DNA of 64,000 nucleotides, from NCBI GenBank assembly GCA_963457535.1, contig OY734803.1, positions 334,781-398,780 of the forward strand. The letters run 5' to 3'. Shown piece after piece: positions 7,833 to 43,670 of the stretch. Position 1 is the stretch's first letter. Every line of letters starts with the position of its first letter. The position numbers and the translations under genes are program-made. The notes beneath the pieces are model-generated. The model did no database searches. It worked only from the letters and a program-made list of their open reading frames with translations, and was not told the origin of the DNA. Origin of the DNA: Arenicellales bacterium. GTDB taxonomy: Bacteria; Pseudomonadota; Gammaproteobacteria; Arenicellales; Poriferihabitantaceae.

Positions 7833-9113
7833 ATGCGCGAATTTTTCGACGAACTGGAAACGCGCGACGCGCAAACCCGCGACGCGCAAACGCTCGCCGC
7901 CATCGCCGCGCAGGTCGGCCACGCCGCCAAAAACGCGCCGGCCTACGCCGAGATTCTCGCCGGCGCCGACCCGCGCGCGCTGACTTCCGACCCGCGCGCG
8001 CTGACTTCCTTTGACGCGCTCGCCGAATTGCCGCTGACGCGCAAATCGGAAATCGCGCGGCTGCAGCGCGCGGCGCCGCCTTTCGGCGGGCTGAGCGCGC
8101 GCCGCCCCGGCGAACTGCAGTATCTGTTCGCCTCACCGGGACCCATTTACGAACCGGCGGCCGCGCGCGCCGATTACTGGCGCTTTGCGCGCGCGCTGTT
8201 CGCCGCCGGGTTTCGCGCCGGCGATGTCGCGCAGTGCTGCTTCTCCTACCACCTGACGCCGGCCGGCGCGATGGGCGATTCCGGCTGCCGCGCGCTCGGC
8301 TGCGCGGTCATTCCGGCCGGCACCGGCCAGAGCGAACAGCAGGCGCAAACCATGGCCGACCTGAAAGCCGACGGCTACATCGGCACGCCGTCCTTCCTTC
8401 GCATCATTTTGGAAAAGGCCGATGAGACCGGCGCCGATGTGTCGGCCCTTCGCAAGGCGCTGCTCTCGGGTGAAGCGCTGCCGCCGGCGCTGCGCGGCGA
8501 ATTCGCCGCGCGCGGCATCGGCGCGCTGCAATGCTACGCCACCGCCGACCTCGGATTGATCGCCTATGAATCACGCGCCGACGACGGGCTCATCATAGAT
8601 GAAGGCGTGCATGTGGAAATCGTATCGCCGGACGGCGCGCCGCTGCCCGACTTTGAAACCGGCGAAGTCGTGGTCACCACTTTGAATCCCGACTACCCGC
8701 TGATTCGTTTCGCCACCGGCGATTTGTCCGCGTTCATGCCCGGACAAAGCGAATGCGGCCGCACCAACCGCCGCCTGCGCGGCTGGCTCGGGCGCGCCGA
8801 CCAGACCGCCAAGGTGCGCGGCATGTTCATCCACCCGTCGCAAATCACGCGAGTGCTGCAACGCCGCCCCGAAATCGCGCGCGCGCGGCTGGTCATAGAC
8901 TGGCACGAACAGCGCGACCGAATGACCCTGCACTGCGAGCCCAAACCCGACGCGCGCGCCGACGACGCGCTTGCCGCCGCCGTCGCCACGAGCATCCGCG
9001 AAATATGCAAAGTGCGCGGCGAAGTTCAATGGACAAAGCGCGGCGCGCTCGCCGATGATGGCAAGGTGATTGATGACATTCGTGATTACCGGAATGAGCA
9101 GACGGGGAAATAA
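7833..9113 (+). CDS. Phenylacetate-CoA ligase-like (PaaK / F390-synthetase family) adenylate-forming enzyme
   Basis: The N-terminus (FDELETR ... LPLTRKSEI) and the core (YIGTPSFL, LSGEALP, RGMFIHP) resemble PaaK-family ligases that accompany Liv-like ABC clusters. The ATG at 7833 lies just after the LivF-like stop. Confidence 0.75.
   Translation: MREFFDELETRDAQTRDAQTLAAIAAQVGHAAKNAPAYAEILAGADPRALTSDPRALTSFDALAELPLTRKSEIARLQRAAPPFGGLSARRPGELQYLFASPGPIYEPAAARADYWRFARALFAAGFRAGDVAQCCFSYHLTPAGAMGDSGCRALGCAVIPAGTGQSEQQAQTMADLKADGYIGTPSFLRIILEKADETGADVSALRKALLSGEALPPALRGEFAARGIGALQCYATADLGLIAYESRADDGLIIDEGVHVEIVSPDGAPLPDFETGEVVVTTLNPDYPLIRFATGDLSAFMPGQSECGRTNRRLRGWLGRADQTAKVRGMFIHPSQITRVLQRRPEIARARLVIDWHEQRDRMTLHCEPKPDARADDALAAAVATSIREICKVRGEVQWTKRGALADDGKVIDDIRDYRNEQTGK
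7860..7889 (+). repeat. In-frame 15-bp tandem duplication (2 copies, 14/15 identical) encoding TRDAQ-TRDAQ
   Basis: Read directly: acgcgcgacgcgcaa / acccgcgacgcgcaa. Confidence 0.9.
7968..8009 (+). repeat. In-frame perfect 21-bp tandem duplication encoding DPRALTS-DPRALTS
   Basis: Read directly: gacccgcgcgcgctgacttcc occurs twice back to back. Confidence 0.95.
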
Positions 9114-10248
9114 CGAGCGCGGAGGGATTGACGGCCTGTTGCATGGGCTTAAGGTGCTCGACCTGTCGCAGTTCATTCCGGGGCCTTACGCCACCCGGCT
9201 GCTGTGCGACCAAGGCGCCGAAGTAATCAAAGTCGAGCCGCCGCAGGGCGACCCGATGCGCCGCCTGTTTTACGACGGGGAAGACGCAATGTCGCCGGTG
9301 TATTGCGCGCTCAACCGCGGCAAGCGCATTTTGTGCATCGACTTAAAAAGCGCGCGCGGCAGGGATATGCTGCTCGAACTCGCGCGCGGCGCCGATGTGC
9401 TGCTGGAATCCTTTCGCCCCGGAGTGATGCGGCGGCTCGGCCTGGACTGGCCGGCGCTGCAGTCCGTCAACCGCGCGCTGGTCTATTGCTCATTGTCCGG
9501 CTACGGCCAGCACGGCTGTTACCGTGAAGTCGCCGGCCACGACATCAATTACTGCGCCGCCGCCGGTTTATACAGTTCGGCGCGGCCGCCATCCAAACCG
9601 GCGTTCGCTTTTCCTCCGCTCGCCGACCACACCGGCGCGATGCTTGCCACTTCCACCATATTGTCGGCCTTGTATGCGCGCGCGCGCGACGGCAACGGGC
9701 GGTTTCTTGATGTCAGCATTTATGAATCGGCGCTGGCGCTTCGCTACATCGGCAATTTGCGCGCGGCCGGCGCCGGCATTCACCACGCGGACTTTCTCGG
9801 CGGCGACGCGGCCTGCTACAACATCTATGCCACCGCCGACGCCCGCTTCATCACCCTCGGCGCGGTCGAGGAAAAATTTTGGCGCGCGTTCTGCGCGGCA
9901 ATGCGCGAGCCAAACTGGGCCTCTCGCCAATACGAAGAGATTCCGCAACACGCGCTGATTGCCGAAGTGCAGGCCCGCTTCGGCGCTGAGCCGCTGGCGC
10001 ATTGGGAGGCGCTGTTGCCGGCCGCGAATTGCTGTTACCAATCGGTGCCGCTCGACCACGAGGTGCTGCGCCATCCGCAGACGCGCGACCGCGGCTTGGA
10101 ATGCGGCAATGACATCCGGTATCCTGCATGGATTGACGGTCAGCCGCCGGCCGCGCCGATTGTGCTGCGGCACATAGACGCCGGCGCCGCGCCCGGCTGG
10201 CTGAGTTCCCAAACAACCGGCACTTCACAATGCCCCACGAAACCATAG
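9094..10248 (+). CDS. Family III CoA-transferase (CaiB/BaiF / alpha-methylacyl-CoA racemase family)
   Basis: LHGLKVLDLSQFIPGPYATRLLCDQGAEVIKVEPP and the later GHDINY motif are typical of this family. The start is taken at the ATG at 9094, which overlaps the previous gene by 20 nt. Confidence 0.85.
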   Translation: MSRRGNNERGGIDGLLHGLKVLDLSQFIPGPYATRLLCDQGAEVIKVEPPQGDPMRRLFYDGEDAMSPVYCALNRGKRILCIDLKSARGRDMLLELARGADVLLESFRPGVMRRLGLDWPALQSVNRALVYCSLSGYGQHGCYREVAGHDINYCAAAGLYSSARPPSKPAFAFPPLADHTGAMLATSTILSALYARARDGNGRFLDVSIYESALALRYIGNLRAAGAGIHHADFLGGDAACYNIYATADARFITLGAVEEKFWRAFCAAMREPNWASRQYEEIPQHALIAEVQARFGAEPLAHWEALLPAANCCYQSVPLDHEVLRHPQTRDRGLECGNDIRYPAWIDGQPPAAPIVLRHIDAGAAPGWLSSQTTGTSQCPTKP

Positions 10249-11327: not shown

Positions 11328-13787
11328 TCAGGCGCGCGGCCGCTCGTTTTGCGGGTCCCAGACCGCCTCCTCCAAGACGGTGATGGAGCGCTCCGCGCCG
11401 AGCAATTCCACGGAAAATCCGCCGGCATTTTTGCCGTCGCCGAGCAGCGCGGCGTCCACATAGGCGAATCCGAGGCTTTTGCCGGTGTAATGCCCGAGCG
11501 CGCCGGAGGTGGTCACGCCGACCGCGCGTCCGCCGTGAAACACCGGCTCGCCGCCGGCGACATCGCAGTCGCCGCTTTCGGCTTCAAAATAGATCAACTT
11601 TTGCGCGCCGTCCGAATTTCGGCCGCGCGACTCCAGCGCCGCTTTTTTGCCGGTGAAATCCGCCTTGTCTTCGGCGAAGAACCGTTCAATGCCGGCGTCA
11701 AAAGGCGTGATTTCATTGGTCAGTTCCGCGCCCCAGCCTTTATAGGCTTTTTCCATGCGCAGCGAGTTGAGCGCATACGCGCCGAAGTTGGCGATGCCAT
11801 GCGCGCCGCCGGCCGACCACACCGCGTCATACACCTCCTGCAACTTCTCCATCGGGCAGTGCAGTTCCCAGCCCAACTCGCCGGCATAGTTGACGCGCAA
11901 TGCGCGCAATTGCGCGCCGGCGATTTCAATTTCGCGCGCGCGCAGCCACGGATGCGCGGCGTTGCTTAAGTCGGCTTTGGTCACTTCGGCCAGCGTCGCG
12001 CGCGACCGCGGGCCCGCGACCACCAGAACGCCGTAATCGCCGGTCACATTTTCAACCGCCGCGTCTTCGCCCGGCTTCACGCCGTAACGCAAGATGTCAA
12101 AGTCGCGGTCTTCGCAGAGCGCGCCGGAGAGGATGTAGTAATGCCCGTCGCGCAGCCGCGTCACCGTGGATTCGCCGATGATGCGCCCCTGCTCCGACAA
12201 ATAGTGCGTCAGCACGATGCCGCCGTCGCGCGCCGGCATGCGGTTTGCGCTGATGCGGTTCAGCAGCGTTTCGGCGCCGCCGCCGCGCACTTCGTATTTG
12301 GCGAAGCCGGACAAATCAATCACGCCGACGCGCTCGCGCACCGCGCGGCATTCTTCGGCAACCACATCCATGATGTTGTTGTGGCGAAAGCCGGGCTGCT
12401 CTTCGCGGCCGTCCGGCGAAAACCACTTCGGCCGCTCCCAGCCGTTGGCTTCGGTGTACACCGCGCCCTGCTCGGCGAGGCGCGCATACAGCGGCGTAAC
12501 CCGCGCTTTGCGCGAGGCCGGGCGCTCTTCGCCGGGCAAATGCAGCGCGTACATGTGCTCGTAGTCCTGGTGCGATTTCGCCTTGGTGTAAGCGCCGGGC
12601 GCGTAATCGCCGAAGCGGCGCGGATCCACGCCGGCCATGTTGATTTCGGAATCGCCGTGCACCATCCACTGCGCCAGGTATTTTCCCGAGCCGGCGCCGG
12701 CCGCGATGCCGATGGAGGCGCCGTTGCAGTGCCAGTAATTGCGCAGACCGGCCGCCGGACCCAGCAGCGGGTTCGCGTCCGGCGTGTGCGGAATCGCGCC
12801 GCACACCGCGCGGCGAATGCCGAGGTTGGCCCACTCCGGTTTGCGCTCCATCACGCGCTCTATGTAGGGCGCGAGATGATCAAAGTCCGCTTCAAACAAT
12901 TCGTTCTGCGATTCCCATTCGGGCCAGCCGCCGCGCTCGCTCCAGCATTCCTGCGAGTTCGCGGTTTCGTAAATTCCGATCAGCGCGGATTTTTGCTCCT
13001 GCCGAAAATACGAGGATGCATACGGGTCGCGCATCACCGGCATCTCGCCGTCGCGCGCGGCGAATTCCGGCGCCGGCTCGGTGACGACATAGGTGTGTTT
13101 CATGTTGGTGATCGGGATGTCGGTGCCGGCCATGCGGCTGACCTCGCGCGCATAACAGCCGGCCGCGTTGACCACCATTTCGCAGACCACCGCGCCATGC
13201 TCGGTCTGCACTTCCCATTCGCCGGACGGGCGCATTTTTATGCCGGTAACGCGCGTGTGCGGAACGGCGCGCGCGCCGAGTTGTTTCGCGCCGGCGGCCA
13301 TCGCGTTGCACACGCCGGCCGGATCAACATGCCCGTCGTCGGTGGTCCACGCGCCGGCGAGCACGCCGTCGGTGACCACGCCCGGGCAGAGTTGCGCGAT
13401 TTTCGCCGGGTCTATGATTTCGCAGCCGAAACCGATCAGTTTGCCGACCGCGGCGACGCGGTGAAACCACTCCACCTCGGCCGGCTTCAGCGCAAAGCGA
13501 ATCGCGCCGCAGCCGTGCCAACTGACATATTGCCCGGTCAATTTTTCCAGTTGCGGATAGAGGCGCACGCCGTAGTTGTGGATTTTCGCCATGTTGTAAT
13601 CGGCGATAAAACTCGGGCAAAGCCCGGCCGCGTGCCAGGTGGAGCCGGAAGTCAGTTCGCCTTTTTCCAGCAACAGGCAGTCCTTCCAGCCTTCCAGCGC
13701 GAGGTGATAGAGCAGCCCGGCGCCCATGACGCCGCCGCCGACTATGACGACGCGGGCTTGGGTGGGGAGGGTTTTGCTGTCGGTCAT
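11328..13787 (-). CDS. Dimethylglycine/sarcosine dehydrogenase-like protein (FAD oxidoreductase fused to a GcvT aminomethyltransferase/folate-binding domain)
   Basis: 819 aa. The N-terminal dinucleotide fold is VVIVGGGVMGAGLLYHLA. The C-terminal half has GcvT-like segments (VGVIDLSGFAKYEVRG, NYAGELGWELH). Confidence 0.9.
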   Translation of the reverse strand: MTDSKTLPTQARVVIVGGGVMGAGLLYHLALEGWKDCLLLEKGELTSGSTWHAAGLCPSFIADYNMAKIHNYGVRLYPQLEKLTGQYVSWHGCGAIRFALKPAEVEWFHRVAAVGKLIGFGCEIIDPAKIAQLCPGVVTDGVLAGAWTTDDGHVDPAGVCNAMAAGAKQLGARAVPHTRVTGIKMRPSGEWEVQTEHGAVVCEMVVNAAGCYAREVSRMAGTDIPITNMKHTYVVTEPAPEFAARDGEMPVMRDPYASSYFRQEQKSALIGIYETANSQECWSERGGWPEWESQNELFEADFDHLAPYIERVMERKPEWANLGIRRAVCGAIPHTPDANPLLGPAAGLRNYWHCNGASIGIAAGAGSGKYLAQWMVHGDSEINMAGVDPRRFGDYAPGAYTKAKSHQDYEHMYALHLPGEERPASRKARVTPLYARLAEQGAVYTEANGWERPKWFSPDGREEQPGFRHNNIMDVVAEECRAVRERVGVIDLSGFAKYEVRGGGAETLLNRISANRMPARDGGIVLTHYLSEQGRIIGESTVTRLRDGHYYILSGALCEDRDFDILRYGVKPGEDAAVENVTGDYGVLVVAGPRSRATLAEVTKADLSNAAHPWLRAREIEIAGAQLRALRVNYAGELGWELHCPMEKLQEVYDAVWSAGGAHGIANFGAYALNSLRMEKAYKGWGAELTNEITPFDAGIERFFAEDKADFTGKKAALESRGRNSDGAQKLIYFEAESGDCDVAGGEPVFHGGRAVGVTTSGALGHYTGKSLGFAYVDAALLGDGKNAGGFSVELLGAERSITVLEEAVWDPQNERPRA

Positions 13788-13805
13788 ATAGACTTGGAGG
13801 ATAAC

Positions 13806-14171
13806 TTAAATCTTTGCGAACGCAAACAGCGCCTCGATTTGTTTCAGTGCCTCGGCACATTCAGCACATCGATTGTCGATGGAACCCGGAGCTTTTGTCC
13901 TTACACACTGCTGCTCATACTCATCCCATGCATTGTTAAAGGATTTTCGTTTGCGCCGCGGTACATAAGGCTCAAACTGTATTTTTGCCATTTTGTGTTG
14001 TTCGATTGCCTTTTCAGTCAGAATACGAAAAACATCTTCCTTGCCGGCTTGCAGGGCAAGGATCTGCTTTACAAATGCAGCTCGAAATTTTTCGGCCGCA
14101 GACGCGCGACGTTGCTCTTTCGCACCGACTCGGCCAACCACAAACTCAAGAATGGTATTAAAAATGCTCAT
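13806..14171 (-). CDS. Hypothetical protein (121 aa) in an AT-richer cassette
   Basis: This is the only long ORF in the segment. It is co-directional with its neighbours and ends 16 nt upstream of the dehydrogenase ATG. It has a basic PRRKRKS patch and C-x13-C-x2-C. I recognise no family. Confidence 0.55.
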   Translation of the reverse strand: MSIFNTILEFVVGRVGAKEQRRASAAEKFRAAFVKQILALQAGKEDVFRILTEKAIEQHKMAKIQFEPYVPRRKRKSFNNAWDEYEQQCVRTKAPGSIDNRCAECAEALKQIEALFAFAKI

Positions 14172-14266
14172 ACTTAGTTTTCACCAAAGTAATTGCCGCA
14201 CAAAAATTCTACTTGCAAAATTAAATCTATGCACGATACCAATAAAAACTTCGCGGCCACCCTTCC

Positions 14267-14290
14267 GCTACTTATTTCTCTATAAGTAGC
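14267..14290. promoter_or_regulatory. Perfect 9-bp inverted repeat (gctacttat-N6-ataagtagc) spanning the stop codon of the 188-aa ORF
   Basis: Read directly. It could form an RNA hairpin between the two cassette genes. Function unknown. Confidence 0.3.
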
Positions 14291-14838
14291 AGGGTATGAA
14301 CCGCACAGTACGGACAACAGGAGTAAACCCCATCATCGCGCCTTACCAAACGCTTGACAGAGCATACACATTCAATGTAGTTCTCGCAACCCATCGGGGC
14401 TTTAACTATCACAAATCCACGACGCCAATTATGACGCCAAGATGAATCCATTGCAGAAGAGATCCAGAGCGGAGTCTTTTTCTCTTCTGCACGCCACTTA
14501 TCCACAAGTTGCTTCGCATAGGCGCCATACTCTTCCCAGCTCATGACTGGTTCTTCTACTTTGACCAACGCATTGTTCCCGCACAGCGGGCACATCGAAT
14601 ACACTCCCTCCCAATAGCGGACCAACCGCCTTTCACTGTGGTCGCACACATCGAAAGTAAAGCGAGCTGCTTGTTGACCGCGCGCAGTATTCCATTCCAT
14701 TGAGTATCCCAACGGAATGCCGAAAAAACGCTCGCGATGCTTTTTTTCCACGCGCACAGCGTAAACAGAGTAGTCATGGTAGCTCATGACATGAGAGCAT
14801 TCTGGCTGGCCTGCATTTGCCGATTTGCGAGAATTCAT
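14272..14838 (-). CDS. Hypothetical Cys-rich protein (188 aa) with an internally duplicated zinc-ribbon-like module
   Basis: The ATG at 14838 overlaps the MttB-like stop (ATGA); an alternative start is at 14787. Two related segments are present: FDVCDHSERRLVRYWEGVYSMCPLCGNNALV and IECVCSVKRLVRRDDGVYSCCPYCAVHTLL. The DNA is AT-richer than its surroundings. Confidence 0.6.
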   Translation of the reverse strand: MNSRKSANAGQPECSHVMSYHDYSVYAVRVEKKHRERFFGIPLGYSMEWNTARGQQAARFTFDVCDHSERRLVRYWEGVYSMCPLCGNNALVKVEEPVMSWEEYGAYAKQLVDKWRAEEKKTPLWISSAMDSSWRHNWRRGFVIVKAPMGCENYIECVCSVKRLVRRDDGVYSCCPYCAVHTLLLIEK

Positions 14839-16403
14839 TTCGCCATCATACTCCCCCGAGGCAGCAAAATCTCAAACTCCCCCCGAATCTCCGCGTCCAG
14901 TTTCTCCCCGATATGCGCCGGGAAATGCGTCGCCAAAATCTCCCGCGTTTTTTCGCGCGCGGCGGTGTTGACCTGGTGCGCGCCGTTTTCGCGCCATTCA
15001 TCCGGGGTCAGGCGGTCGCCGACCAGCGGGTAGACATAGTCGCGCTGCATGCGCGACAGCGTGTCGTCGTGGCCGAGGAAGTGCTCGGGGCCGCCGATGC
15101 ACACTTCGGAAATGGTTTTGACCGCGAGCGACTGGTCGTCTATTTCAATGCCGCGCACGCTGCGGTTGATCGCGCCGAGCAGGTCGTTGTCCAGAAGCGC
15201 GCCCTCAAAACTAAAGCCGAGCAAACTCGCCTGCATGCCGGCCGCCTCATACACCAGGTTCGCGCCGCTGTGGCCGGCGAGCGCGAGCGTGTAGCCCTTC
15301 TCGTAGCCGGATTGCGCGTCGGGGATTTTGGAATCGGCCATGCCGGCGGCGATGCCGGTCGGCAGGTCGTAATACCGCCCCATCTGCCCGCAGGCGGCCA
15401 TCAGCACCGCCTGCTCGCCGCTGCCGCCGCTCATCGCGCCGGTGCGCAGGTCGGAGACGAAAGGCCAGGGGGCGAAGATCGCCGGGTGGCCGGGGCGCAG
15501 CAAGTTCACATAGGCGAGTCCGCCGAGCACTTCGGCGACTTCCTGCGCGACCGCGCCGGCCAGCGATGCCGGGCTGGTCGCGCCGGCCTGGCCCGCGGCC
15601 AGCAATAAAATCGGCATGCCGCCGTGCACGCAGGTTTCCATCACGCGGCAGGCGTCCTCGGCGAAACGCATCGGCGGCACCACGAAGCAGCACGAGACGC
15701 TGGCGAACGGACGCGCGCGCCATTTGCTTTCGCCGCCGGCGACGCGGTGCAGCATGCGCAGGCCCTCTTCGGCGTGCTGCGGGTCGACATAACTTACGCC
15801 GCAGTGCTTGCGCGTGCCGCTGATGGAAGCGTAGGTGGTGTGCAGGTCCATCGCGCGCGGGCTTTCAATGTCGCGCGCGACCATGCAGCGCTGGAAGAAG
15901 TGAATGTGTTCCAGGCAGTCCACCAGGCGCGCGGCGTCGTAAAGGTCCTGCAGGGTGGATTCGCGGTAGGCGCCCTTGCCGGGGAGGTTGTCATGCGTTT
16001 TCCATTCATCCACGACATGCACGGCCGCGCCGGCCGTGCCGAAATAGACCTTGTTGCCGGACAGATGCATGTCGTGCCGCGGGTCCTGCGCGAACAGCGT
16101 GATGTCGCGCGCCGCGCGCTCCAGCGTCTCGGCGATCATCGCGCGCGGCAGCCGCAGCCGGCCGTCGCGGAAGGTCGCGCCGGCCGCGGTGAACAATTCC
16201 ACGCAGGAGGGAATCGCGCGCGCGAAACCGACATGTTCAAGGATGTCGCGCGCGGCTTCGTCTATGCGGCGGATGTCGTCGTAGCCGAGCGGCAGGTAGC
16301 GCCCGCCGCTTTCGCCGGGGCGCACCGGCTTGCTGTCTTCGGCCAGCGGCGCGGCGCGCAACGCCTTGCGCGCCTCGCGGCCGCCGGCCCGCCGGGCCTT
16401 CAT
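14835..16403 (-). CDS. MttB-superfamily methyltransferase (non-pyrrolysine type; glycine-betaine/quaternary-amine methyltransferase-like)
   Basis: About 520 aa. The characteristic N-terminus is RRAGGREARKALRAAP, and the protein has length and similarity typical of trimethylamine methyltransferase family proteins. There is no internal TAG. The start is taken at 16403 (alternative 16451). Confidence 0.8.
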   Translation of the reverse strand: MKARRAGGREARKALRAAPLAEDSKPVRPGESGGRYLPLGYDDIRRIDEAARDILEHVGFARAIPSCVELFTAAGATFRDGRLRLPRAMIAETLERAARDITLFAQDPRHDMHLSGNKVYFGTAGAAVHVVDEWKTHDNLPGKGAYRESTLQDLYDAARLVDCLEHIHFFQRCMVARDIESPRAMDLHTTYASISGTRKHCGVSYVDPQHAEEGLRMLHRVAGGESKWRARPFASVSCCFVVPPMRFAEDACRVMETCVHGGMPILLLAAGQAGATSPASLAGAVAQEVAEVLGGLAYVNLLRPGHPAIFAPWPFVSDLRTGAMSGGSGEQAVLMAACGQMGRYYDLPTGIAAGMADSKIPDAQSGYEKGYTLALAGHSGANLVYEAAGMQASLLGFSFEGALLDNDLLGAINRSVRGIEIDDQSLAVKTISEVCIGGPEHFLGHDDTLSRMQRDYVYPLVGDRLTPDEWRENGAHQVNTAAREKTREILATHFPAHIGEKLDAEIRGEFEILLPRGSMMAK

Positions 16404-16534
16404 ATGCGGATGTTGGTGCGGGGTTGGTGCATCGCGCAATGATAGCGGCATCGGCGCGCGCCGGCAAGCGGCGGTTGCGCTATACTCCGCCCCCCTTTGG
16501 GCGGCCCCTTTTGGCGCGCCCGCATCCCACGCAA

Positions 16535-40365: not shown

Positions 40366-41214
40366 TCACAACGGCGAACCCTGCGGGGACGCGGTGTTGG
40401 CATGCACCCAGCGCTCCCAGCCGGGCAGCGCGGCGGCGTGGGCGCTGGCGACCACCGAGCGTTTGCGCAGGCGCGCGCAGTCCAGGGGCTTGCCGGACAG
40501 CGAGGTCGCGGCGCCGCCGGCTTCGGTCAGGATGCGCCAGCCGGCGGCGAAGTCCCATAACTTTTGCCCGCCGTGCAGATACAACTGCGCGCGGTCGGCG
40601 GCGAGCCAGCACCATTCCAATGCGGCCGCGCCGAGGTTGCGCTGCGAACGGTAGGGCGGCGAGCGCACCAAGCGCTCGGACAAATTTCCGACCAGATATT
40701 TGTGGTCGACCACGGCGATGCATTCGCCGAGCGGGCGCGGCGGCGGGCGGCGCAGGCGGCGGCGGTTGAGGTAGGCGCCGCGGCCGGCCTGCGCGCAAAA
40801 ACATTCGCGGCGCAGCGGGTCAAACACCACGCCGAGTTGCGCCGCGCCGTCGGCGACCAGCGCCAGCGAGACGCCGTAAAACGGAAAACCGCTGCTGAAA
40901 TTGGTGGTGCCGTCCAGCGGGTCCAACACCCAGTAACCGGCGCCGCTCTCGCACACCGCGCTCTGCTCGGCATGCGCCATCTCTTCGCCGATAAACCCGT
41001 AGCCGGGCCAGGCGCGGTGCAATTCCTCCAGCAGGCGCTCCTGAATGCGGCGGTCCAGGTCGGTGACCCAGCCGCCGTCGGGTTTGGTGTCGCGCGAAGT
41101 TTTCGCCGGGCGGTTTGCCGCGTGTTCTTCCAGCGCGACTCGTTTCACCAAATCGCCAAGCGCGAACAAATCGGGCGGCGCGTCGTGCGCCGCGGCCGGA
41201 GCAGCGGCGCTCAT
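40366..41214 (-). CDS. Inositol monophosphatase family protein (SuhB/CysQ-like phosphatase)
   Basis: FIGEE and WVLDPLDGTTNF motifs. The ATG at 41214 forms an ATGA overlap with the upstream CheA-like gene. Confidence 0.8.
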   Translation of the reverse strand: MSAAAPAAAHDAPPDLFALGDLVKRVALEEHAANRPAKTSRDTKPDGGWVTDLDRRIQERLLEELHRAWPGYGFIGEEMAHAEQSAVCESGAGYWVLDPLDGTTNFSSGFPFYGVSLALVADGAAQLGVVFDPLRRECFCAQAGRGAYLNRRRLRRPPPRPLGECIAVVDHKYLVGNLSERLVRSPPYRSQRNLGAAALEWCWLAADRAQLYLHGGQKLWDFAAGWRILTEAGGAATSLSGKPLDCARLRKRSVVASAHAAALPGWERWVHANTASPQGSPL

Positions 41215-43670
41215 TGCATCGCCGGCGGGCGAACCGCCGCGCCGGGGAAAATGCCCTGCGCGATGCGGCACAGGTCGGGGACGATGCCGATGCGCCGCTG
41301 CAACTGAACGCAGCCGAGCGCGTTGTCGGGCGGCTCGCGCGGGGTGACCGACGGCGCGTGTTCGGCGATTTCCAACAATGACGGCGCGCCGTCGCTGGCC
41401 AGCGCAAAAAAGGCGGTGGCGCGGTTGCCCTGCAGCGGGCGCAATACCACCGCGCGCGCGCCGCAGCCCAGCGGGCGCGACGGCGCGCCGACCGCGGCCG
41501 CGGCGTCTATCAGCGGGACTTGAAAGCCGCGCCAGTCAAAATTGCGCCGCACCAAATTGGGGCCGCCGGGCGCGGAGTCGCGGCGGAACAAGCCGCCATT
41601 CGCGGAATCCACCGGCATCGGTGTCTCGGAGAGATTGACGATGTCGGCGATCAGGTTGAGCGGAATCAGCACCGCGCCGAGCGAGGTTTCCAGCGCGAGC
41701 ACGCGCGACGGCGCGGCGTCGGCGCCGGGCTCGCGCGCGCCGAGCGGGAAGCGCGCCAACCCGTCGTCCTGCAGGCCGAGCGGGTCGGTGAACGCGGACG
41801 GGTCAAACACCGGCGCGATTTCCCCGCCCTTATGCGAAAGCGGCACGGCGACGCTTTGCAGGCCCTGAATGTCGGAGAGTTGGCCGCCGAGCGCGCGCTC
41901 CTCAATGTCCACGATGTCGTGCACCTGATCCACGGCGAACGCGGCGACGCGGTCGGTCATGCGCAGCAGCACCAGCGGGCGCAGTTGCGGCGGCGGGTTG
42001 GAATTTAATGCGCCGAGCGCGACCGCCAGATCAATCAGCGGAATGCGGCGCGCGTCGTCCAGGCGAATGCTCGCGCGCCCGTCGGCGGCGGTCTCGCAGT
42101 CAATCGGGCGCGCGCGCAGAATGCAGTCCACCTGCCGCATCGGCAGCGCGAGGCGGTAGCCGCCGGCGGTGACCATCAGCGCGCGCGGCGGCGCGGCCGC
42201 GCCCGGCAGCAGGCAATGCAGGCGCAGCCCGGCCTCGGGCGGCGGCGAGGTTTGCAGCGCCATCAAGCCGCCGAGTTCGCCGATGGATTGGTGCATCATT
42301 AATATGTCGTCCATGCCGGCCAGGTTGAACACCGCGGCCGCGCCGTTGCCGCCGGCGGCCGGCGCGCGCGGCGCGCGGTGGGTGCGCGCCAGAATTTGCA
42401 GCCAGTGCGCGGCGCGAATTTCCGAGGCGCGAGCGCACAGGCCGAGGGCGATGGCCGCGTCGGCGAAGCGGCGCGCGCCGGGGCCGCGGCCGTCGTCGGC
42501 GTAGTCCAGCAGCACTTCCCCGCCCTGCCGCGCGGCGCGCAAATGAATGCGCGCGAGCGCGGGTTTGCCGGCCGCGGAACGCGCGCCGGGCTCTTCAATG
42601 CGCTGCACGATGGAATTGTGAATCAGCCGCTCAAACGCCGGCAACAGGCGTTCAATCACGATGCGGTCAATTTCCACATCGCCGCCTTGCAGGGTGAATT
42701 CAACTTGCTTGCCGGCGCGCTCGGCGGTCTCGCGCGCGAGGTGCGGCAGGTGCTGCAGCGGCTCGGCGAAAGTTCCGGGAGGAGGCGCGGACGCGGATTG
42801 GGCGGCGTTGCCGGCATTACCGGGTTGGCGGCCGTTGCGGCGCGCTTCGTCGGAAAGCAACAGCGCGACCATGCTGTTCAGCGAGGCGATATGCCCGCGC
42901 GCGAGCGACGGCGCCAAGCCCAACTCGGCGGCGAGTCCGTCATGCGCTTCTTCCAGCAGGTTCAGCAGGCCGACATCGTTAATGTCGCGCGGCGCTTCCG
43001 ACTGCGCCAGCAAGCGCGCGATGCTGCCGGTGAGCGCGGCGATTTCGTCTTGGCCGGCCACGGTCGCGCCGCGCTGTAGCGCGCGGAATTCTTCGCACAG
43101 CGACTGCAGCAACGCCGCATCCACATTGCCGCCGCGCCAGCCTGCCAAACCGGCGTGAATGCTGGCGAGGCGCGGCTGGCATTCGGCGACGAAAGCCGGC
43201 GAATGCGCCTCGGCCGGCGGCGCCGGGGGCGGAGGCGGAGCAACTTCGGCGGGAGGCGCCGGAGCGGGTGGCGGCGGCGCAGCGACCGGTTGTGCGGTGG
43301 GTGGCGTGGTTGCAGGCGCAGGAGGTACGGGGGGCGCGGCGACGGGCGGCGGCGCGGGTGCGGTGGGAGGCGGAGCGGATGCGACCGACAGCGGCGGCGG
43401 CGCAGGCATCGGCGCCGGTGCAACTCCAATTGGTTGCGCGACGGGCGGCGCGATTCCCGCAGACGGCGCCGGCGCGGTTGCCGTCGGCGTATAGGCGACC
43501 GCCGAGGCCGGCGGACGCTGCGGGGGCTTGTGCGCGCCGCCGAGCGGCGCGCCGGCGTCGGCGTCAAAGTCGTCCACCACCGACTTGCGCGCGGCGAACG
43601 CCGACAACGCGCCGAAGGCGTTGCGCCAACTCGCAGACAGCGTGTCCAGGGCGTCGCGCCAGTGCATCAT
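41211..43670 (-). CDS. CheA-like protein: Pro-rich N-terminus, Hpt-like region without a histidine at the phospho-site, degenerate HATPase-like domain and two CheW-like domains
   Basis: 819 aa. The Hpt-like helix is LCEEFRALQRGATVAGQDEIAAL. The kinase-core-like region is EFTLQGGDVEIDRIVIERLLPAFERLIHNSIVQ ... LLDYADDGRGPG ... IGELGGLMALQTS. The CheW-like blocks are ALMVTAGGYRLALPMRQVD and VLALETSLGAVLIPLNLIADI. Confidence 0.7.
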   Translation of the reverse strand: MMHWRDALDTLSASWRNAFGALSAFAARKSVVDDFDADAGAPLGGAHKPPQRPPASAVAYTPTATAPAPSAGIAPPVAQPIGVAPAPMPAPPPLSVASAPPPTAPAPPPVAAPPVPPAPATTPPTAQPVAAPPPPAPAPPAEVAPPPPPAPPAEAHSPAFVAECQPRLASIHAGLAGWRGGNVDAALLQSLCEEFRALQRGATVAGQDEIAALTGSIARLLAQSEAPRDINDVGLLNLLEEAHDGLAAELGLAPSLARGHIASLNSMVALLLSDEARRNGRQPGNAGNAAQSASAPPPGTFAEPLQHLPHLARETAERAGKQVEFTLQGGDVEIDRIVIERLLPAFERLIHNSIVQRIEEPGARSAAGKPALARIHLRAARQGGEVLLDYADDGRGPGARRFADAAIALGLCARASEIRAAHWLQILARTHRAPRAPAAGGNGAAAVFNLAGMDDILMMHQSIGELGGLMALQTSPPPEAGLRLHCLLPGAAAPPRALMVTAGGYRLALPMRQVDCILRARPIDCETAADGRASIRLDDARRIPLIDLAVALGALNSNPPPQLRPLVLLRMTDRVAAFAVDQVHDIVDIEERALGGQLSDIQGLQSVAVPLSHKGGEIAPVFDPSAFTDPLGLQDDGLARFPLGAREPGADAAPSRVLALETSLGAVLIPLNLIADIVNLSETPMPVDSANGGLFRRDSAPGGPNLVRRNFDWRGFQVPLIDAAAAVGAPSRPLGCGARAVVLRPLQGNRATAFFALASDGAPSLLEIAEHAPSVTPREPPDNALGCVQLQRRIGIVPDLCRIAQGIFPGAAVRPPAMQ

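Follow-up and report, generated by a model that had tools for sequence, protein, structure and literature searches.

The insert between mttB and dmgdh

In the 64-kb window (the whole stretch of 64,000 nucleotides from an Arenicellales bacterium analysed here), the gene for an MttB-like methyltransferase (mttB) and the gene for a dimethylglycine-dehydrogenase-like protein (dmgdh) are separated by a low-G+C insert of 1047 nucleotides (nt) on the minus strand (positions 13788–14834), which fills the whole interval from the mttB stop to the dmgdh start and which is referred to below as the cassette. Its G+C content is 0.472, compared with 0.674 for mttB, 0.646 for dmgdh and 0.644 for the whole window. 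Calculated in steps of 200 nt, the G+C content is 0.415–0.53 across 13800–14900 and 0.58–0.75 on either side; calculated in steps of 300 nt (mean 0.645, standard deviation 0.047), the cassette is the sole extended region below 0.53 in the 64 kb. The dip of about 1 kb that the original prediction had seen by eye is thus real (47% versus 65–67% in the flanks). The codon usage, for which a check had been proposed, is also alien: the G+C content at third codon positions is 0.52 and 0.44 in the two open reading frames (ORF1 and ORF2) of the cassette, whereas the genes on either side have values of 0.85 and 0.80. The log-odds of the cassette for host codons are negative, but frame 0 outscores frames 1 and 2.

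The upstream flank (14835–16451, minus strand) encodes an MttB-superfamily methyltransferase without pyrrolysine (PF06253, E = 1.9e-113). Since its score is below the cut-off of the trimethylamine-methyltransferase equivalog, it is regarded as a non-pyrrolysine "MttB-like" enzyme. The downstream flank (11328–13787, minus strand) encodes a dimethylglycine/sarcosine-dehydrogenase-like protein (DMGDH) with the domains DAO, FAO_M, GCV_T and GCV_T_C. The C-terminus of MttB and the N-terminus of DMGDH are at the same end and start positions as in relatives free of an insert. The two ORFs in between, predicted as co-directional and of 188 and 121 amino acids (aa), were found at 14272–14838 and 13806–14171, both on the minus strand. 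Because the four genes lie in a row on this strand and have divergent and convergent neighbours, mttB, ORF1, ORF2 and dmgdh, in this order, are read as one transcription unit.

ORF1 (188 aa; isoelectric point 8.7; 10 Cys, 7 Trp) is a tandem duplication of a module of ~90 aa. Its ATG overlaps the mttB stop as ATGA (14835–14838), as had been noted before, and GGGGGAG is present 12 nt upstream of this first ATG. In one public gene call an alternative start at M18 (14787) is used, which results in 171 aa. When the insert was shuffled 2000 times, an ORF of at least 188 aa was obtained 4 times. Aligning residues 20–96 with residues 101–188 yields a local score of 79 (25.8 ± 4.7 in shuffles, z = 11). 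Within the module core (RLVRYWEGVYSMCPLCGNNAL and RLVRRDDGVYSCCPYCAVHTL), 13 of 26 residues are identical, the nucleotide identity being 50%, and 11 of these 13 residues are encoded by differing codons in the two modules. Conservation of the amino acids but not of the codons is a signature of long-term selection at the protein level. ORF1 is a real protein-coding gene, or was one until very recently.

Both modules contain putative zinc-binding knuckles: C65-x-H67 ... C83-P-x-C86 in module 1 (14581–14646, minus strand, in RLVRYWEGVYSMCPLC) and C157-x-C159 ... C175-P-x-C178 in module 2 (14305–14370, minus strand, in RLVRRDDGVYSCCPYC). The four ligand positions of the modules align with one another (C65/C157, H67/C159, C83/C175 and C86/C178). 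ORF1 is therefore built of two C-x-[H/C]-x15-C-P-x-C units, each with the two knuckles and four Cys/His ligands by which zinc ribbons and treble clefs are recognized. Sub-threshold matches to Zn-ribbon RNA-binding models (E = 0.059) agree with this ligand pattern. A further sub-threshold match, to the Lar-like restriction-alleviation family phrog_6422 (E = 0.038, 15.4 bits), covers residues 79–110 only. Judged from the pattern, ORF1 would be a zinc-ribbon-type protein that binds nucleic acids or other proteins.

ORF2 (121 aa; isoelectric point 9.5) is predicted to form a five-helix bundle; the structure model is of moderate confidence (predicted local distance difference test, pLDDT, 73.5). 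The protein has a basic patch, P-RRKRK-S, at residues 71–77, a Cys at position 89 and a C102-x2-C105 pair, and the G+C contents at its three codon positions (0.59/0.38/0.44) are coding-like. ORF2 would be a small basic helical partner of ORF1. When the model was compared with known folds using Foldseek, only generic four-helix bundles were retrieved (PDB, E at least 0.075; BFVD, E at least 0.22), among them PsbQ, FAT domains, FliS and designed proteins, and these matches were rejected as uninformative.

Between ORF1 and ORF2 there is a spacer of exactly 100 nt with 39% G+C (14172–14271, minus strand), in which a weak GGTGA precedes the ORF2 ATG by 9 nt. The length and the composition of the spacer are as first described; the perfect 9-bp inverted repeat (14267–14275/14282–14290) that had been assigned to it straddles the ORF1 stop instead. 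On this repeat a hairpin with an 11-bp stem and a 6-nt loop is built (14265–14292, minus strand), which covers the last ORF1 codons and the stop codon and which was rejected as a canonical intrinsic terminator because no U-tract is adjacent to it. No canonical terminator was found in the cassette, an Rfam search gave no match, and a simple consensus match gave no sigma-70-like promoter site in 13500–15200, an absence that is weak evidence. From the ORF2 stop to the dmgdh ATG there are 18 nt (GTTATCCTCCAAGTCTAT; 13788–13805, minus strand), not 16 as originally counted, and this stretch has no Shine-Dalgarno-like sequence.

The statement that neither ORF has a recognizable family held in all searches. 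Nothing significant was found for either protein in Pfam, NCBIfam, PADLOC or PHROGs; in PADLOC-DB v2 there was no family at E ≤ 1, and in Pfam no match to a B12-binding domain (PF02310/PF02607) or to a RamA-type ferredoxin/ATPase domain. From 5.8 billion proteins, a word-indexed search recovered only the cassette's own proteins. An exhaustive phmmer search with ORF1 against 1.84 billion representatives returned ORF1 itself and a 907-aa repetitive protein (P0003), which was rejected as a repeat artefact, its six matches all being over a 26-residue Trp/Ser-rich stretch. Among PDB sequences nothing was below E = 0.87, no match was obtained with tblastn in phages or plasmids, and no relative was present in IMG/VR, the JGI metagenomes or the GTDB genomes. 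Thus, the co-occurrence of the two ORFs elsewhere (phage, plasmid, genomes or metagenomes), which had been suggested as a test, was not found beyond the cassette itself. As far as these searches go, ORF1 and ORF2 are orphans, i.e., proteins of new families, and ORF1 would be a new, internally duplicated zinc-ribbon-type protein without relatives among ~15 billion predicted proteins.

Upstream of mttB there are divergent genes for RmuC and a YHS-domain protein, and downstream of dmgdh there is a convergent enoyl-CoA hydratase gene. All neighbours examined belong to ordinary non-mobile families (RmuC, YHS, enoyl-CoA hydratase, CoA-transferase, AMP-ligases). The claim that integrase, tRNA and flanking direct repeats are missing is confirmed: there is no tRNA gene within 9–20 kb, and neither direct nor inverted repeats at the insert exceed the chance level. 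An integron integrase gene (intI) was not among the genes ~5 kb on either side of the cassette, the rest of the window not having been scanned exhaustively. Elsewhere in the window, a second 819-aa ORF (41211–43670, minus strand) equals the dmgdh-like protein in length and is unrelated to it; it has a CheW-like domain and adjoins a gene for an MCP-signalling-domain protein, and the locus is accordingly taken to be a chemotaxis locus.

The junction in strains and relatives

Five further public contigs, which come from at least four assemblies, have the cassette in an unchanged context, namely a 27-kb long-read contig (L089), a 4.8-kb contig of a metagenome-assembled genome and three short contigs of 1.2–1.3 kb (L numbers denote the contigs and loci used for comparison). 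The flanks of the cassette-bearing strains diverge by 1–2%. For example, L089 is ~98% identical to the window and differs from it at 51 positions in dmgdh (44 of them synonymous) and at 17 positions in mttB, but at only one position in the cassette, where from the flanks 17.5 differences are expected (P(≤1) = 4.8e-7). The sole difference is A55V in ORF2. L001 differs from the window at 30 positions, none of which is in the cassette, and the same rate would give ~10 for the stretch of 1212 nt to which the cassette belongs. For L002, the first 114 nt of dmgdh contain 6 differences and the cassette contains 0. Indeed, none of the contigs L001 to L004 has any difference in the cassette. On the mttB side, the diversity is reduced for ~600 nt. 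A cassette that is nearly invariant in flanks diverged by 1–2% is younger than the divergence of the strains, and its transfer between them, or its sweep through them, is recent.

In the first 160 nt of dmgdh (window 13629–13743) there are 8 differences to L089 (~5%), the average of the gene being 2%. This polymorphic start of the gene suggests a cluster of recombination breakpoints at the edge of the cassette. L089 also lacks ~1.1 kb of the window (9094–10230), corresponding to a CoA-transferase family III gene (9070–10248) of normal G+C content between the genes for enoyl-CoA hydratase and an AMP-binding enzyme; this is a second strain-level difference in gene content.

Relatives of MttB with 52–82% identity are found in sponge-associated Gammaproteobacteria (Arenicellales, Candidatus Poriferihabitaceae and Candidatus Spongiihabitans) and in more distant Alphaproteobacteria. 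In 79 related mttB loci that were compared, no relative of ORF1 or ORF2 was detected by tblastn. Orthologous operons without the insert, which were to be looked for, do exist: in 19 relatives the gap between mttB and dmgdh is 46 nt or less, or the two genes overlap. Direct adjacency of the two genes is thus the common arrangement and presumably the ancestral one. In seven relatives (L018, 7561–7786; L019, 4863–5029; L024; L017; L047; L023; L080) the gap is 72–193 nt, and in four of these (L018, L019, L024 and L047) its G+C content is 8–16 points below that of the locus. Such gaps may have been left behind when earlier insertions were deleted.

In other relatives the junction is filled. Inserts of 655–5452 nt are present in L005, L012, L016, L083, L009 and L086; in all six the G+C content of the insert is below that of the host and the genes are oriented as the operon. 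The insert of L009 is a 5.5-kb cluster encoding an FkbM methyltransferase and GT2, GT25 and GT-D glycosyltransferases, that of L083 contains, besides other cargo, a lipoprotein-like gene, and that of L086 contains in addition two small ORFs and a DUF6693 protein. Directly after mttB, L087 (5737–9499) encodes a Type IIG restriction-modification enzyme together with a HicB-like antitoxin. In L010 (8656–11328) the genes at this place are for a Type II DNA methyltransferase, for a protein of 222 aa without assignment and for an AIG2-like protein, and the cargo also includes an EamA transporter; an NYN-domain protein, a Fic protein (PADLOC models PDC-S04/SoFic) and an rve-type insertion sequence are found in L007 (7698–11313). 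The junction of L006 contains insertion sequences and that of L043 has been rearranged. In 10 relatives mttB is arranged with RmuC as in the window, and the junction is occupied or disrupted in all 10. Altogether, at least six kinds of cargo were found at or just after the mttB stop of relatives; a motif shared between lineages at the left or right boundaries of the inserts was not found. Different and unrelated cargo at one junction, together with empty junctions elsewhere, indicates that the 3' end of mttB is a hotspot of recurrent insertion and turnover, in which the cassette of the window is one occupant, specific to its lineage.

One of the cargo genes recurs. At mttB|dmgdh it encodes proteins of 195–244 aa, in which an N-terminal transmembrane helix is combined with a coiled coil and with a C-terminal domain that is conserved. 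No Pfam family exists for these proteins. Only 20 members of this 195-aa family were found; all retrieved loci and all members with an annotated source are from sponge-symbiont lineages. The genes are low in G+C, have an extended -10-like motif of their own (TGnTAnAAT) and are co-oriented in two different operons, at mttB|dmgdh and, in two genomes (L084 and L085), at ccmB|ccmC. They are located at L005:7686–8276, L012:7649–8383, L016:7676–8263, L086:5001–5621, L087:5001–5528, L084:5001–5711 and L085:5001–5627; damaged copies are at L083:8739–9325 (frameshifted) and L008:7665–7964 (truncated). The gene looks like a single-gene hitch-hiker within operons. A kinship of ORF1 or ORF2 to this family was considered and rejected, the hhalign probability being 0.3–2% and no DNA remnant of the gene being present in the window.

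In L083 there is also an orphan fragment of ~75 nt from the 5' end of dmgdh (8503–8578), which is 79–82% identical to the allele of the window/L005 type and which is placed between the lipoprotein-like gene and the promoter of the frameshifted 195-aa gene. This fragment is a recombination scar, and it shows that cargo has moved along with flanking core sequence.

Origin of the cassette and rival explanations

The region is probably recently acquired, strain-variable foreign DNA in a lineage-wide insertion hotspot at the mttB-like|dmgdh-like junction of sponge-associated Arenicellales/Candidatus Poriferihabitaceae, and we think it likely that the cassette is cargo of this hotspot, a hitch-hiker, and not a component of the betaine demethylation pathway. 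The properties by which hotspot cargo is recognized are all found: the interval is variable and empty elsewhere, the composition is alien and the exchange is recent. Of the foreign cargo pair that had been proposed originally, the foreign origin and the hitch-hiking are well supported by the alien codons, the absence of the cassette from 19 operons, the other cargo at the same junction, the near-invariance between strains and the lack of a promoter. The label toxin-antitoxin-like or defence-like has no direct support: there is no PADLOC or Pfam match, the architecture is atypical, and the label draws only on the defence genes of relatives.

Recombination with its anchor points in the conserved genes on either side may have brought the cassette into the population and spread it there. 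Exchange via the flanks is the most economical mechanism because no integrase, attachment site, terminal repeat or shared end motif was found; on one side an illegitimate join may have been involved. Since the cassette has neither a promoter nor a canonical terminator of its own, its transcription is probably by read-through from the mttB promoter, and ORF1 may be translationally coupled to mttB via the ATGA overlap. The dmgdh gene would now be transcribed through the insert, with an 18-nt leader that lacks a Shine-Dalgarno sequence. ORF1 might act as a zinc-dependent component binding nucleic acids or proteins and ORF2 as its helical partner. That the pair has an accessory, conflict-related role (defence, addiction or counter-defence) is a tentative proposal, made because defence genes are present at the same site in relatives and because the cassette has spread recently.

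Several points weigh against this interpretation. On the dmgdh side the strain differences resume 45 nt from the edge of the cassette, which is closer than would be expected of simple homologous exchange and leaves room for another mechanism of insertion. An allele of the same species with an empty site was not found, the GTDB genomes and JGI metagenomes that were searched not including the species; the exact 3' end of mttB is absent from both, and the MttB (two start variants) and DMGDH proteins are not on record. Read-through transcription and translational coupling are what we infer. The single-sequence AlphaFold2 model of ORF1 has a pLDDT of only 33.6, and the zinc-ribbon fold is deduced from the sequence pattern. 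That ORF2 is coding is less certain: 71 of 2000 shuffles (3.5%) gave an ORF of 121 aa or more, and one public gene call on L089 left ORF2 out. Finally, the conflict-related role is suggested by the cargo of relatives and not by properties of ORF1 and ORF2, for which PADLOC was blank.

The closest competitor, a specific functional form of the cargo pair proposed originally, is that the cassette is a functional two-gene conflict module, a new pair of the toxin-antitoxin, abortive-infection, anti-phage or anti-restriction type. The tandem zinc-ribbon protein ORF1 would then be the part that binds nucleic acid, with ORF2 as its effector or partner. Two small basic proteins are encoded together on a cassette that has recently spread between strains, genes of the defence type are found at the junction in L087 (Type IIG restriction-modification, HicB), L010 and L007, and ORF1 has the weak likeness to the Lar-like PHROG and to Zn-ribbon RNA-binding models mentioned above. 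Neither protein, however, has a significant match in PADLOC, Pfam or PHROGs, homologues were not found and the pair co-occurs nowhere else, the 100-nt spacer and the lack of a promoter are atypical of type II toxin-antitoxin pairs, and the cargoes of several relatives have nothing to do with defence (a glycosyltransferase cluster, an EamA transporter, DUF6693). We consider this explanation possible, but rather doubtful.

Inert passenger DNA is also a serious rival, although an unlikely one. The cassette would then be what is left, neutral or decaying, of a larger mobile element or of a phage that had entered the only position that the operon tolerates, and it would be kept by drift and linkage. 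This would fit with a cassette that is known from one species-level population only and that has no regulatory signals of its own, and with the turnover and pseudogenization at the hotspot, where the 195-aa gene is frameshifted in L083 and truncated in L008 and where the gaps of 72–193 nt may be scars. The single polymorphism in the cassette is non-synonymous and is in ORF2. On the other hand, neither ORF is broken in any of five independent contigs, the ligand pattern conserved between the ORF1 modules bears witness to past selection at the protein level, and near-identity amid flanks diverged by 1–2% is better explained by recent spread, which may have been a gene-specific sweep, than by a long neutral residence.

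A more far-reaching possibility, to which we give little credence, is that stop-to-start junctions within conserved operons of these sponge symbionts (mttB|dmgdh, and ccmB|ccmC in L084 and L085) are targeted by an unrecognized, integrase-independent mechanism which places small low-G+C cassettes precisely and co-directionally, and that ORF1 and ORF2 are a new conflict system with a tandem zinc-ribbon protein. Room for such a mechanism is left by the 45-nt limit on the dmgdh side, by the recurrence of cargo at the exact junction and by the occurrence of the 195-aa gene in two operons.

That the two ORFs are accessory factors of quaternary-amine demethylation, e.g., a zinc-dependent or corrinoid-related helper coupled to MttB, was the second of the explanations offered originally. 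The ATGA overlap and the upstream GGGGGAG are compatible with coupling, ORF1 is rich in Cys, and there is no gene for a corrinoid protein in the operon. That the methyltransferase has no adjacent corrinoid partner is correct for the window, but it is equally true of all related loci examined, with or without an insert, and the ATGA derives from the native end of mttB (compare GCGAAATAA in L005). The cassette, whose codon usage is alien, is absent from the 19 related operons, and other relatives have unrelated genes in its place; it also postdates the divergence of the strains, and no homologues are found beside any other mttB gene. Given the hotspot comparison and the age of the cassette, this explanation is essentially refuted and very improbable. 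The least credible explanation, that the assembly wrongly joined a cluster of foreign reads to the operon, could appeal to the three public carrier contigs of only 1.2–1.3 kb that end just inside the flanking genes, but identical junctions are shared by the 64-kb window, by L089 (the long-read contig of 27 kb, from another sample), by the 4.8-kb contig and by the three short contigs from further assemblies, which were broken where short-read assembly met strain-polymorphic flanks around a shared cassette.

For annotation this means that ORF1 and ORF2 should not be read as missing parts of the MttB/dimethylglycine-dehydrogenase pathway. A catabolic operon of sponge symbionts tolerates and repeatedly receives foreign genes exactly between two cistrons, and the junction acts as a miniature variable island with cargo that includes restriction-modification and Fic-type genes. 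The cassette is also a natural example of a gene-sized tract of low diversity in polymorphic flanks and of recent gene-specific spread in a symbiont population. If the pair turned out to be a module for defence or addiction, it would represent a new family. To a specialist in bacterial genome dynamics there is little in the finding that is surprising.

Comparison with known systems

Type II toxin-antitoxin genes overlap or are a few nt apart and have their own autoregulated promoter. The cassette resembles them in that two small adjacent, co-directional foreign genes are present in a variable region. It differs by the lack of a family match, by the 100-nt spacer, by the absence of a promoter/operator of its own and by the absence of a recognizable DNA-binding antitoxin domain.

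Phage morons, which are often conflict-related, are comparable as AT-richer genes inserted cleanly between two conserved co-oriented genes. Classically, morons bring their own promoter and terminator. The cassette has neither, its host locus is a chromosomal catabolic operon and no sequence similarity to phages was found. Integron gene cassettes are small promoterless co-oriented genes, often of unknown function, that are driven by an upstream promoter, and with these the present cassette shares the small promoterless co-oriented genes and the variable cargo at one site. The 3' end of an integron cassette, however, is formed by attC, an imperfect inverted repeat of roughly 60–140 nt, and here only 18 nt follow ORF2, the only hairpin is that of 11 bp, no attC-like repeat is present and there is no nearby intI; an integron cassette was therefore rejected.

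The two proteins also differ from what is known of partners of MttB: a corrinoid-partner or accessory domain is in neither ORF, and there is no conserved co-occurrence across the 79 mttB loci. ORF1 has the CPxC knuckle after a Cys/His pair in common with zinc-ribbon/treble-clef proteins such as Lar-like proteins, archaeal Zn-ribbon RNA-binding proteins and RNA polymerase subunit P, with sub-threshold matches at residues 61–110. The E-values of 0.04–0.5, however, fall far short of the cut-offs of these families, and the tandem arrangement of the module in units of ~90 aa is without counterpart.

The closest parallel is with integration hotspots and defence islands. The concept of chromosomal integration hotspots between conserved core genes is reportedly that of Oliveira, Touchon and Rocha in 2017. 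As there, an interval flanked by core genes contains varying low-G+C cargo, including restriction-modification, Fic, HicB and insertion sequences, with turnover and with recombination in the flanks. In contrast to these hotspots, no integrase, tRNA or repeat is associated with the present one, the interval is inside an operon and exact from stop to start, the insert is only 1 kb long, and all cargo ORFs of appreciable size run in the direction of the operon, both in the window and in the five GTDB relatives whose insert between mttB and dmgdh is compact.

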